DNA of 64,000 nucleotides from Lama guanicoe (Eukaryota): the NCBI GenBank assembly GCA_013239625.1, contig MU053645.1, forward strand, positions 186,001 through 250,000, in the 5' to 3' direction. Below, piece by piece: positions 15,319 to 46,736 of this stretch. Position 1 is the first letter of the stretch, and the number at the start of each line of letters is the position of its first letter. The notes beneath the pieces were generated by a model. That model was not told the DNA's origin, ran no database searches, and saw only the letters and a list, made by a program, of their open reading frames with translations. Made by a program: the position numbers and the translations under genes.

Positions 15319-15478
15319 CTACTGAAGATGGTATGTCTTTCCACACTTCAAGGATCTTCTTGAAGAGTTGTTCATTTGCCTCCATAGAAAGGGCTTCCGC
15401 ATTGAAGGTGAGCATCATGCCAATTCCCAAGGAATCAGGTAAAATGATGATATTCTGTGGTATAATGATTTCCAGGGG
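15319..15478 (-). CDS. NRK: NRK exon ~27, CNH (PLEIIIPQNIIILPDSLGIGMMLTFNAEALSMEANEQLFKKILEVWKDIPSSV)
   Basis: ttccag acceptor (alternative in-frame acceptor at 15454), G|gtatgt donor, 160 nt. Confidence 0.9.
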
Positions 15479-18281: not shown

Positions 18282-18431
18282 GTTATTTGGCAGGGTCACA
18301 TCAGACATAACCTCAGATTCTGCATCAATGATGTGATATCCATCTGCTGAGCTGAAGAAAATCTTTAGTCTTTTTTCAGAACCAATAGCCAGGTCAACTG
18401 TCACTGGCTTATGACCAAGTGTTGGAAATAC
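18282..18431 (-). CDS. NRK: NRK exon ~26, CNH (VFPTLGHKPVTVDLAIGSEKRLKIFFSSADGYHIIDAESEVMSDVTLPNN)
   Basis: ctacag acceptor, AAC|gtaaga donor, 150 nt. Confidence 0.95.
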
Positions 18432-18715
18432 CTGTAGATATAAAACCAAATACGGCCAAAAGGCCAAAAATGACACTCTGTCTAAGGTGAATTCCCCACC
18501 CTTTTGCTTAGCAGGTTTATAAAACCCAAAATGATTTTTTTAAATTATAATATATTTAGAGACCTATGTATTAGAACTTTTGTTAGGTCTGTTATTAGAA
18601 TAAGAGCAATTATATTCAGGTTCTAAATATTGAGTTTTCCTTCGAAGACCAAATCTCCAATGATCATAAGAGCCTTGTATGGCTCTGCACTGTTTGCTGT
18701 CTTTAAATTCCTTGC

Positions 18716-18859
18716 CTTGAGCTTCAGCAAATGAAGGAGCTCATCTGGTCTCTTAAACCGGTTAGCTGGATCAGCTGCCTGTATTTTTGCCAGTATTCGT
18801 ATATAGGCTTCATAGGACATGTAGTCTCCTTCGGAGTCTGCTGATTGATCAATGCATAC
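18716..18859 (-). CDS. NRK: NRK exon ~25, symmetric cassette exon with non-canonical AA acceptor and GC donor (VCIDQSADSEGDYMSYEAYIRILAKIQAADPANRFKRPDELLHLLKLK)
   Basis: 144 nt, phase 0-0, open. The peptide matches a segment I recall in human NRK between ESTAIK and VFPTL. Flanks are tttttcattccctaccaa|GTA and AAG|gcaagg. Confidence 0.75.
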
Positions 18860-19094
18860 TTGGTAGGGAATGAAAAAGGCCAGACATGTTAACCTACCAT
18901 AGACTGGATGTACTCTAGGCTCCTATGGTTCCTAGTCCAAAGAAACAAAAAGTCAAACAGGTTTCATTGCCAAGTTCAGGTCACAGTAGAGGACTGGACA
19001 TCACAGGTTTCACCATACTGTAGTCATGAGGTGGAATTCAAGAACTGGAGTGAGGACTTGGACCAGGAACTGTGTATCAGACTAGACAGACTGT

Positions 19095-19222
19095 TGGTAC
19101 TTACCTTCTTTGCTTTCCAGCTCCATACCAGGTAGCTCTGACCAATCAGCAGACACCCAAGAACAAACCCATATCCAAATACTGACAGCTGACCCAAAGC
19201 CCAATTTACGGAGATCAGATCA
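19095..19222 (-). promoter_or_regulatory. Putative editing-site complementary sequence (ECS) for the exon ~25 acceptor
   Basis: Imperfect inverted repeat of 18742-18897. Most differences are G-U compatible on the minus-strand RNA. C19131 lies opposite A18860. Confidence 0.75.
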
Positions 19223-19494
19223 GGGATGTGATCTGTATCAGGACAGACCCAGACTCTCTATATAGTAGTTTGTGCTATTTATAAAAGAACATGTTTATTA
19301 TGTAAATAGACATTGAGGGGCAGTCTTAAAAATTAGCCTGTCTTTATCTTATACATGTGATGTTTTGGCCTACAAAATATACCATGTAAACACATGTGAC
19401 CTAAGATACAAAAGTATTTCATGAATACCTTGCTGGGGTCTATCATGATATGTCATGATTGGTGCTTTGTATAAAAAAAAGTCCATGGACCAAC

Positions 19495-19648
19495 CAGTTC
19501 AAAATCTCCTCAGATGTTTGCTAAAAATATAGATTCCTAGGCCCCACTCCAGACCTACTAATTTGGCCCGGGGTTGAGTCTGAGATCTAAACTTTTAACA
19601 AATGCTCCAGATGATTATTATATACATCTCAGATTAGAAGCTACTGGA
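19495..19648. mobile_element. MER5-like hAT-Charlie MITE
   Basis: aaaatatagattcctaggccccactccagacctact...ttttaacaaatgctccagatgatt. Confidence 0.75.
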
Positions 19649-20452
19649 CTCTATGTAAAGCTGCCAGCTCATTAATCAGTCTTTACTACTATAAAACAAA
19701 TACAAAATAATCCTGTTTATGCTGATTTCTGGAGCATTATAAAAAGATAACAAAGATAAAAATAATCCCCAGTTTATGAGGTGTGATTAAAAAATCATCA
19801 GCAACTTAATTGTTTGGGACACTAAATGGTTACCTTAAGAGGGTGATCCATAGAAGTTCAGTTAAACCATAATAAAAGTGGTAATATTAATTACTCATAA
19901 TCCAAATAAGCCTAACCACCATTCTTTGCAATAGTTCTAGAGAAAAATGTGTTTAGAGATTCAGCTTGGAAGGAATATAGATCCACCCTTTCCTCCCCAT
20001 CCCCATCTATTATAGCCCTGGTAATTAGAGCATAGGCCTTCTCTTCCCTCATCCCTCTACCATTGTCACATCTTTTCTTACCTTCCCTCTGCTCTCCACC
20101 CCCCACTAAGAGAGAACAGGGATGTTCTCAGCTTCAAGTCATTGGGGTGGCACCCAAAACCTGTTTTGGGGGCTTTAGAAGAGAAGGTCTTCATGTTGAC
20201 TACAGGAATTGGGAGTGAGGAAGTGGTGGGGAGGTTCCTGTAAGGGGAAGGGTCAGGGATTTCCCTCACATTCTCCCTTGCTGTGGTGCCTGTGAATTGT
20301 CTAAAAAAGGGTTAAACGATAATTATTGACATGGTATATTCAAATTACATTAACTGTAGAAGAACTGTATATATTTCTGCTACTATATTCCAAAATACTA
20401 TTCTGTTTACAATTTCTCAAAAGAAAAAACAAAGGATAAGCAGACCACTCAC

Positions 20453-20553
20453 TTTAATAGCAGTGCTTTCGTCAAAGGACTTTGGTGCCCATGCATACAG
20501 GTGAATTGATGATTTCAAAGCAATTGCAATATACGTTGTTTCTTCATGTTGGA
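20453..20553 (-). CDS. NRK: NRK exon ~24, CNH (QHEETTYIAIALKSSIHLYAWAPKSFDESTAIK)
   Basis: ctgtag acceptor, AAA|gtgagt donor, 101 nt; YAWAPK CNH motif. Confidence 0.95.
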
Positions 20554-20739
20554 CTACAGTGATAAAACACAAAGAAGTAGCAATACCACAGAGTTAACAA
20601 GAACACTCAAGCATTTGTATTTGTCATTGAAAATATCATAAGCACAATGTAAGAGCATAGATCATATATTTTTAGAAAAGCTATTTGGCTACAATTTGAT
20701 GCCCAAAAGAAGGTGACAAAAATAGTGTAAAGTTTTATG

Positions 20740-32843: not shown

Positions 32844-33180
32844 CTCTAGTTGATGTTCAAAGTCCTGGGATGCTGGTCTTTCTAATACTGGATCATCCAT
32901 CTCTGAGCAATTTTCTCCTCCACTGAGTTCAAGGGCTTCACTCTCTTCATTGGTTCCACTGACTCTCTCACCTTCATTACTCTCCTTGCCTCTTCTTCCA
33001 CTGCCTGTATTGGCTCTGTGTCCTTCATGGTCTCCAATGGCTGCACTGTCCCCACTGGCTGCATTTCCTCCATGGCTTCTATTAGCTCTCTGGCTTCTAT
33101 AGCGGCTGAAACTTCCTTCTCCCCTATCACTTCCAGCTTTACCATCTTGCTTGCAGCTTCCATCACTGCCATAGCTTGGC
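32844..33180 (-). CDS. NRK: NRK exon ~19 (PSYGSDGSCKQDGKAGSDRG...VLERPASQDFEHQLE)
   Basis: ttatcag acceptor, GAG|gtaatg donor, 337 nt; the frame is set by the neighbouring exons and differs from ORF-track 32882-33190. Confidence 0.92.
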
Positions 33181-34706
33181 CTGATAACAAGATCTAATTA
33201 ATGATAGAAAGCTACCCAGCAAAAATACATTTGAAAGTTAGCAAATGAAACAAAATTAGGATGTCTTATACATATGTACCATTTCCGGGCATGTTTTTGC
33301 TCTATGTGAACACTACTGGTATGATACAGACACAAAAAATGTCCCTATGTCCTATCAATCTTAAATACTGAATTAACATCATAGCCACCATCAACTCCCT
33401 GGCTGCATTTGGATGGCAGATGGAAGAGAACTTGCATCCTTCATTAGGAACATGTGTTAGGAATATATATTTTTTTTCTTAAATAATAGACTACTTCATG
33501 CATTAGCAACTTCACAGCCACATGATTAAGCCCATATTTTTGGCTAAACACATATTTGAATAATTCTTCTTGTGATATAAATTATGTTAATTTAAACATG
33601 TGCCTTCATTGTCTGATATGTGTATTATCTACTTTGCGACAGATTCCCATTGATTGTATTACTACTACCACCAGAAAGTTCAGTAATATAGATCTCATTA
33701 AATTAAGATAGTCATTTAATTACTTGCTAAGAACACCAAGCTTAGCAAAATGCCTCAGTGATCTTTTGCATAAGAGACAACATAAACATGTGCCTATGAC
33801 AATTCAAAGAGCAAATTTACTTGACAAGGGAATTCCTGGTAGTTTTTTTAGTTGACAAAAAAGAAAAGTGTTGAATGATCTGTAGTTTGTTCTGACATGT
33901 ATATCTCCAGTAACATTTAAAGAATAACAAAACAAAATATAGATTTCAATATTATAAAGCAAACAATTCTCCCACTGTTATTTATTTTTCTAAAAATATA
34001 AAAATGTACTATATTAATGAATCATCCTTGAGAGCAGTTTAAATGCAAACCATAAACATATGTAAATAAGAACATAGTGGCTGTTTGTAGAGTAGAAGCA
34101 AGTAACTATATATACAGCAAGCAGCTGGTGGTAGGCCAAAAACACTACTTCACTAAATATTATCACTTTGGGCAGCTACTCTATAAGAAGATAAAATTGA
34201 ATGAGTACTGAATTTAGTTACAGTAGTTTTCAGAATCCCAAGAATAATGCTATGTTAGTAAGCTGCAGTCTAAAACTATCAAACGAGCGTCAAGTTTGCA
34301 ATTCATTTTTCTCAGCAGATTTAGAGATTTTGTTCACAAACACCAGAACTTCATCTTACAGTTATTAAGTAGCACACTATTTAATTTGTCACCTCATTTA
34401 TCACATTCATTGTGGCTGTACAGGGTAGAATGATTCAGTAGCTTTAATTTTAACGGAAACACCCAGACAATTCCAGTTATAAAGAACCTAATAAATACTT
34501 CAGTGCTAATATAGTATTACAAGAAATGCAAGGTTAAGTGATTTGCATTAGAATAATTTAAAATCTATTATTGAAAATCAACAATTTATCAATGTACAAT
34601 GGAATTCATTCACCCTCTTGGTAATAAATTTTAAAAGTAAACCAGCAATGCAAATAGTTCTGAATTTATAAAACATGGATAGTGCAAGTAATCCAGAAAA
34701 ACCAAC

Positions 34707-35071
34707 CTTGGCCAACTAGGAACACCATCACGATTATTGTCTTTGTCATCAACATCCTCATCCTCATCACCACCATCATGGTCTTCACCAATATCATTAG
34801 CCTGATCAATCTGAATATCCAAGTCATCACTGCCATTGTCATGGTCATAGGTATCTTCATAAGCATCATTAGAATCATCATCATCACCATCAGTATCAGC
34901 ACCAGCATCATAGAGTTCAACATAATCACCATCCTCTTCAGGTGGCTGAATGACAGGTGCAGGAGTTAACCAATCATTCCGGAAGATTTCAGAGAGTGCA
35001 TTATAGCCTACCCATTCATTTGTCAAGTAAACGGGGGGTGATATTTTTCCTACTTTAAATCCATCTGGAAC
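34707..35071 (-). CDS. NRK: NRK exon ~18, Asp-rich (VPDGFKVGKISPPVYLTNEW...DGDDDDSNDAYED...GVPSWP)
   Basis: acacag acceptor, AG|gttggt donor, 365 nt; within ORF 34631-35083. Confidence 0.94.
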
Positions 35072-45580: not shown

Positions 45581-46736
45581 ATTTGCAACTTGTCTCAATT
45601 CTTCCTCGTGCTGATTAAAGATATCCTCCCATCTGCGTTGGTGCCTTCGCCTGCAGGCTTCTAAATCTGAAAGTTCAAACTCTTCCGGTCTCCGTGACAA
45701 CTTTGCCCGGAACCTCTTTGGTGACAGTCTTTTTGCCAATGCCTGCCTTAGACTAGAAACTTTTGATTTTTTCTTCCGTGCTTGTTCTGGTTGAGAGTAA
45801 AACATGTCTGATGACAGGTTTTCCATCAGGGTTTGCAGTGGACCAAGTGGCTTTGAACTATGTGAATTTGGTGCTCGAAGTAAGTCTCTTGACAGTCCCT
45901 CTATCAGTGCTTGAACCGAGCCAGCCGCCTGCGTGGGCCCTAGTGCCCAGGCCTGCACCTGAGGTGACCCTTCGATTGGCTCCTCTACCGGAATGAGCAC
46001 CTGAGTATCCAAATGTAGTGGCAGCAGCACGTGGTGGTTCTGAGACAGTAGGGGCAGGAACACCTGCGCGTGCACTCGTAATGACTCGGGCTCCTCTGCC
46101 TCAGTCTCCGCCTGCATAGGCTCAGCAGCCTGTTCCTGCACCTCTGGCTGTTCAGGTCCCCGGTTCTGCTCCAGCTGCTGTTCAGGTACCTGGTTCTGCC
46201 TCTGCTGTTGTTCAGGGACCTGGCCCTGCCTTTGTTGTTGGTTAGGGACCTGATCTTGGCCCTGAAATTCCTCTGGTACCTGGTCCAGATCCTGTGGCTC
46301 TTTTGATGCCTGAGGTTGGGCCTGAGCCTGCTGCTCTTTGGGAACCTGTAGAGGCCTGGGGACCTTAACCTGAGCCTGTAGTGGCATAAGCATCCAGCCT
46401 GCCCTCCGCAGTCGTGGAGGTGCCTTCATCTGCATCTGCAGGGGCCTCGATGCCTTAGCCTTAACCTGAGCCTGTAGTGGCATGAACACCCGAGCTGCCC
46501 CCTGTAGTCGCTGAGGTGCCTGGGCTTGCCCCTGCAGAGGCCTAGGTGTGCTGTCCTGAGCCTGCAGTGGCATGAACACCCTGGCTGCTCCCTGTAGATG
46601 CTGAAGTGCCTGAACCTGTGGCTCTTCTCGATCAGGTAACCACCGTGGCTGAGATGGTTCTCCATGCAGGACTCTGAGTGGTCTGCACCTACTGCTGGTA
46701 GGCAGTCTCAAAAGCTCATGGGTACAAGAAGGTCCC
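45581..46736 (-). CDS. NRK: NRK exon ~13, large Q/P-rich linker exon (GPSCTHELLRLPTSS...FNQHEEELRQVAN)
   Basis: Lies within the 412-aa ORF 45527-46765; tttttag acceptor, AAT|gtaaga donor, 1156 nt, GC-rich relative to introns. Confidence 0.96.

Follow-up and report, generated by a model that had tools for sequence, protein, structure and literature searches.

The closest described counterpart of the exon considered here lies in human NRK. In the text and extracted figure text of Parada et al. 2014 (PMC4176328), a GT-AA intron of that gene is converted to GT-AI, with an A>G mismatch found consistently at that AA in nascent, poly(A)-minus RNA and with inclusion of the exon depending on editing. 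The extracted text of Figure S4 gives the NRK junctions as GT-AG (180 reads, exon skipping), GT-AA (69), and GC-AG (42), validated by RT-PCR, and holds no NRK junction beyond these three. The same study, in its text as excerpted, also found GT-AA sites without any sign of editing. The passages of a 2024 review that concern NRK (PMC11019749) restate the case, including a 42-nucleotide exon length. Control of isoform choice by editing is, on the text of PMC4176328, already known for human NRK.

Related systems differ in instructive ways. In ADARB1 (ADAR2), editing turns an intronic AA into AI, which serves as a terminal AG (Rueter 1999, via passages of the review PMC4761006); the edited ADARB1 form is frameshifted (+47 nt) and lowers ADAR2, whereas in NRK the edited form keeps the reading frame and gains a conserved peptide. 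The NARF Alu exon (Lev-Maor 2007, via passages of PMC4761006 and PMC11019749) resembles NRK in that fold-back editing creates a 3' splice site and turns on a cassette exon, but it derives from primate Alu pairs, whereas NRK exon 25 is eutherian-wide, and a transposable-element origin of the eutherian NRK inserts was not found according to the excerpted text of PMC8857918. Edits that destroy an acceptor by turning AG into IG (Hsiao et al. 2018, PMC5991522, main text) are also alike, in that the acceptor is weakened and splicing can move to another 3' site; the AGs in that study are used when unedited, however, whereas the NRK AG discussed below is a candidate acceptor only. The name NRK is absent from the main text of that paper, and no match occurs in the 11 of its 24 supplement files that were searched.

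NRK is a placental kinase gene that restrains the growth of the placenta. Its exon 25 is eutherian-specific and followed by four exons (Lestari 2022, PMC8857918, in excerpt), and a preprint, likewise in excerpt, models it as a pair of helices on that face of CNH which lies opposite to the surface binding the membrane (10.1101/2023.12.27.573405). In the text seen of these two sources RNA editing of exon 25 goes unmentioned, the word appearing only in acknowledgements or author contributions.

Layout of the NRK locus in a camelid genome

We analysed a 64,000-nucleotide stretch of Lama guanicoe DNA (the window), the minus strand of which holds most of the NRK gene: the alpaca NRK protein aligns to it in 25 pieces running from 63778 to 10737, many of them at 95-100% identity, and is nearer to the window than the whale, horse, or human NRK proteins. 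Exon boundaries were set by comparison with camelid NRK proteins. Because four exons follow the cassette, and human NRK has 29 exons of which exon 25 is the eutherian-specific one (PMC8857918, in excerpt), the cassette is taken to be NRK exon 25. The features that matter for its splicing are as follows.

20453..20553, minus strand: NRK exon 24, the upstream constitutive exon, with phase-0 donor AAA|GTGAGT; numbered back from the 29-exon human gene
19115..19223, minus strand: intronic editing-complementary arm (ECS) of a predicted fold, in which C19131 faces A18860
18888..18892, minus strand: TTAAC, presumably the branch point (branch A 18889), matched by sequence to the yUnAy consensus
18862..18880, minus strand: polypyrimidine tract, mostly base-paired in the predicted hairpin (mean unpaired probability 0.2 over 18880-18865)
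18860..18861, minus strand: AA acceptor, with A18860 predicted to undergo A-to-I editing and so to yield CAI|GU; human counterpart GT-AA>GT-AI
18859..18860, minus strand: genomic AG one base downstream of the AA acceptor (exon start 18858), lost on editing
18716..18859, minus strand: NRK exon 25 cassette, 144 nt, an in-frame 48-aa insert inside the CNH domain
18724..18726, minus strand: TGA, encountered only in the shifted frame (start 18858)
18710..18715, minus strand: GC donor of exon 25, AAG|GCAAGG; the human counterpart is the GC-AG junction
18282..18431, minus strand: NRK exon 26, the downstream constitutive exon

The CNH domain spans residues 1218-1547 with the exon 25 insert and 1218-1499 without it. 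A search of the animal's own genome for a second copy or retrocopy of exon 25 gave one match, exon 25 itself; Pfam gave 0 families for the 48-aa peptide and 0 for the 44-aa peptide of the shifted frame described below, and Rfam gave 0 matches within 18300-20600.

The camelid exon can be identified as the orthologue of the one described by Parada and colleagues from its AA acceptor, its GC donor, and the occurrence of the insert in human proteins. Both have an AA acceptor upstream and a GC-AG intron downstream in the same gene, both have skipping and inclusion as alternatives (in camelids, by protein models), and the 48-aa insert is 96% identical; the upstream intron is 1830 nt in human and 1593 nt here, and the text and extracted figure text of PMC4176328 describe neither a hairpin nor a poison form for human NRK. 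That text also speaks of a "42 nucleotide exon", against the 144 nt found here and implied by the proteins; the shorter length is probably a slip for the GC-AG read count in Figure S4.

Reading frames at the AA acceptor and at the neighbouring AG

On the minus strand the acceptor reads C18862 A18861 A18860 | G18859 T18858. An exon starting at 18859 is 144 nt long and adds 48 aa in frame, whereas one starting at 18858 is 143 nt long and encodes a 44-residue peptide followed by the TGA at 18726-18724, so that the in-frame and the poison junction lie a single G apart. Editing of A18860 both makes CAI|GU and converts the AG at 18860-18859 to IG. The sequence-only reading had given these exon ends, the 143-nt exon, its stop codon, and the double effect of the edit, and all of them are borne out. 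Its statement that this AG is the only one nearby needs narrowing: no second AG separates the likely branch point from the exon, but further AGs, all lower-scoring, lie at 18895-18933 and 18842-18839.

A stop codon located more than 50-55 nt before the last exon junction exposes a transcript to nonsense-mediated decay (NMD). The shifted-frame TGA precedes the four downstream junctions by 8, 158, 318, and 458 nt, and thus stands 458 nt before the last of them. This geometry is nevertheless not beyond chance. An AG one base downstream is inherent in any AA|G acceptor, so that the decoy AG needs no special explanation; a G follows the acceptor in 12 of 22 NRK exons, and a one-base acceptor shift yields an NMD-eligible stop at 10 of the 11 internal NRK exons tested.

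A predicted hairpin around the acceptor

For the segment 18700-19300 the folding energy is -192.8 kcal/mol (z = -3.8), a stability reached by 0 of 20 shuffles. Just two of 90 tiles, each 600 nt long, fold better, both far richer in G+C. In the predicted structure the intronic arm 19115-19223 pairs with 18875-18740, covering the acceptor and most of exon 25. The energy of this duplex is -118 kcal/mol, whereas 978 windows of the same strand give -37 on average (sd 9), the best window off the arm reaching -70. The hairpin is beyond chance. Within the predicted fold A18860 is unpaired opposite C19131 while its neighbours are paired, forming an A:C mismatch, a context that ADAR favours when a G follows on the 3' side. 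The locus has a genomic AA at the in-frame acceptor, a pyrimidine tract, and (by match to the yUnAy consensus) a presumed branch point, along with a predicted long duplex to an intronic arm that puts the target A in an A:C mismatch, all as expected of a 3' splice site created by editing.

When editing is modelled as a change to G, the stem is stabilised, the acceptor is left unexposed, and the pyrimidine tract is still paired. The structure would then hide both sites alike, and masking alone cannot explain a choice of the edited site over the AG. Hairpin masking as the cause of the AG being ignored is not supported, given that the stem gains stability in the modelled edit. Further stem edits or helicases are candidates, on this modelling, for giving the spliceosome access to the buried acceptor.

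Strength of the competing splice sites

We scored acceptors against a matrix built from 22 of NRK's own acceptors, with leave-one-out scores; the matrix is small and rough. On that scale the edited site scores 7.1 bits, the unedited AG 4.4 bits, and the raw AA 1.1 bits. The unedited AG, which is the first AG past the likely branch point, outranks 8 of the 22 real NRK acceptors and falls in the top 9% of 3357 gene-body AGs. Rival acceptors upstream (AGs 18931 and 18893) and downstream (18840 and 18837) were set aside, with scores of -1.8 to 2.3.

Intron 24 contains a donor-like site, AAG|GTAAGT at 19099-19107 (minus strand), which at 11.6 bits is the highest-scoring of the intron and exceeds all 22 real donors. 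Placed just within the complementary arm, the site could form pairs with the region of the branch point, and it may be a decoy U1 site or a product of chance. A reading of the arm as a hidden exon, with this perfect donor and a stop-free 153-nt frame from 19257, was rejected: its acceptor scores -2.4, its peptide occurs in no fetched protein, and the single close library match departs at the donor. At the other end of the cassette, some whale and desman models prolong exon 25 by 9 codons beyond the GC donor (18689-18715, minus strand), probably as a workaround for a non-GT donor.

Junction usage in NRK protein models

We fetched 181 NRK proteins, all of them annotation models, with up to 15 members listed per cluster. 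Exons 24 and 25 are joined at the AA in 59 of them and at a junction three bases longer in 66; another 37 skip the exon, 2 enter the poison frame, 3 show other arrangements, and 14 are without an anchor. Camelid models include both skipping and AA-joined inclusion forms.

Of the two poison-frame models, that of donkey terminates in exactly the predicted shifted-frame peptide and that of tamarin enters the same frame; both are singletons in their own clusters. Where their peptides differ from the window, both differing positions are silent third positions of the coding frame, too few to count. Of the 8 matches in a search for short proteins, one is the tamarin model, 4 skip the exon, and 3 read through into the intron, which adds 0 new poison-frame models.

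Signs of conservation across placental mammals

Among placental NRK proteins, 59 clusters carry the 48-aa insert, with identities of 92-100%. Its mean identity is 98.6% across 53 models (leaving out 6 with odd junctions), compared with 98.5% and 96.0% for the flanking exons. Models with the three-base-longer junction include elephant, aardvark, tenrec, rodents, primates, bats, and carnivores, and as such models need an AG at that spot, an A at the editing position is implied in those species. Judged indirectly, from these models, the editable A seems to be old and kept across placental mammals. By the same token the decoy AG, which the 66 models need, is probably widely kept; it consists of the editable A and the exon's first G and cannot be separated from them.

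For the stem we used amino-acid changes among the models: 1 of 11 distinct single-base changes breaks a pair in the camelid fold, where 52% would be expected (P = 0.004), and restriction to changes seen in three or more models gives 1 of 6 (P = 0.09). This test, from which one mis-spliced model was dropped, uses the camelid arm only, the arms of other species being unseen, and it hinges on the correct one of two competing registers around 18788-18814, where several of the sites lie. One library sequence is 93% identical to the arm's translation, which hints at conservation of the intronic arm. A pattern search of metagenome contigs for orthologous DNA gave 596 matches, of which 0 were confirmed.

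Weighing the splicing outcomes

Considering the above evidence jointly, we regard it as likely that exon 25 is a two-way cassette gated by editing, which is either skipped or, once edited, included in frame with 48 additional residues, with leakage through the neighbouring AG at most. The arm at 19115-19223 would fold onto the acceptor and most of exon 25, and ADAR would deaminate A18860 in the A:C mismatch, changing CAA|GU into the consensus CAI|GU, a step shown in human and presumed here. Edited transcripts would include exon 25 through the repaired acceptor and the weak GC donor, extending the CNH domain by 48 aa, and unedited transcripts would mostly skip it, giving a compact CNH. The weak AAG|U site, standing beside a weak GC donor, would lose to skipping until editing supplies CAI|GU. 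The AG one base on would be a by-product of the G after the edited A, with a low-level leak at most, and editing would set the isoform ratio rather than NRK dose.

The sequence-only reading had gone further, proposing a third outcome, unedited inclusion with a premature stop, and through it a coupling of ADAR activity to both the dose and the isoform of NRK. Skipping and edited in-frame inclusion stand, being published in human and found among the camelid models, and by analogy with human the link between editing and isoform appears well founded; the poison inclusion is feasible but unsupported, as is dose control, with no such junction in the extracted human figure and 2 of 181 models in that frame. 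The fuller version of this proposal, in which unedited pre-mRNA is divided between skipping and an NMD-bound AG used often enough to matter, while editing removes the decoy and creates the in-frame site so that ADAR sets dose and isoform together, strikes us as unlikely. The AG is a plausible weak acceptor by score, the position of the stop relative to the last junction suits NMD, the donkey and tamarin models enter the right frame, and AG-destroying, splicing-shifting edits are an established class (PMC5991522, main text). Yet the AG and the stop both arise automatically, gene predictors that demand an AG would produce such models without RNA, and the two models remain singletons to which the short proteins add none. 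A literature search covering titles, abstract starts, and passages, with subscription papers outside its scope, found no report of a poison NRK form and no tie between exon 25 and editing.

The human reads point the same way. In the extracted text of Figure S4 (PMC4176328) the poison junction is absent, and the GC-AG junction, which would be common to both inclusion routes, shows no surplus over the AA junction (42 vs 69). In the pipeline described in that paper's text, three distinct reads in two sources suffice for a canonical junction, and a neighbouring figure, for another gene, shows a 12-read minor canonical junction alongside junctions of 1846 and 2210 reads. This suggests that the poison junction makes up about 1% or less of human steady-state junctions. 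The human data in PMC4176328, as excerpted, are from steady-state RNA, where NMD would conceal part of a poison form. As a rough figure, a few percent to about 10% of splicing could take this route if NMD removes most of the product.

By sequence, the genomic AG also offers two putative in-frame routes that the earlier reading overlooked, through a TG donor and through another donor that lies four bases inside intron 24. GT begins both intron 24 and exon 25, which makes their junction ambiguous in sequence. Inclusion might proceed without editing, either with the AA used unchanged or with a TG donor, shifted by one base, joined to the genomic AG; owing to the shared GT these routes would give the same mRNA as the edited one. 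GT-AA sites free of signs of editing, as reported in the excerpted text of PMC4176328, lend this idea some substance, but that same text reports the consistent A>G at the NRK AA in human nascent RNA, the raw AA has the low score given above, and A18860 sits, by prediction, exactly in the A:C mismatch of a long stem. We hold inclusion without editing to be very unlikely. The remaining route would join the unedited AG to the donor at GTGA|GT, giving an in-frame 49-aa insert, so that use of the AG would not be poison at all. The 66 of 181 models with the longer junction have exactly this form, and the window translates to it (AIKVICIDQ). However, the +4 donor scores -1.1, beneath all 22 real NRK donors; dromedary and alpaca each have both junction versions on record, in different entries, which points to a workaround by gene predictors; and the junction is missing from the extracted text of the human Figure S4 (PMC4176328). 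The extra residue at the exon 24/25 junction in these records is probably an artefact, and we give the 49-aa route scarcely any credence.

Implications of a probable editing-gated exon

What the window adds to the published human case is a probable structural basis, in the anatomy of the hairpin, which we have not found in print. Nor did we find in print the link by which NRK's eutherian-specific exon 25 appears to be the same as the exon that requires editing, or the indirect indications that placental mammals have retained both the editable A and the stem. If both are kept across placentals, as the protein models suggest, this would be an old, non-Alu, editing-gated coding exon. Were the three-way switch true, turning on one adenosine that has stayed editable from the placental ancestor onward, ADAR activity, and hence the interferon state of the placenta, would set both the amount of NRK and the presence of the eutherian insert in its CNH domain; the poison route would then amount to dose control with a polarity opposite to ADAR2 autoregulation, which the evidence does not favour.

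Other observations on NRK

Exon 27 has two acceptors 24 nt apart at 15454-15478 (minus strand), and protein models differ correspondingly by 8 residues. NRK has long exons of low complexity at 45581-46736 and 32844-35071 (minus strand): one is rich in Gln/Pro and about 1.15 kb long, and two are acidic or rich in Gly, with frames open in several phases. In a comparison of the human NRK records P0052 and P0064 there are 5 residue differences from the reference, three of them changes to glycine that would fit A>G; exon 25 is far from all 5 positions, and cloning errors may account for them.
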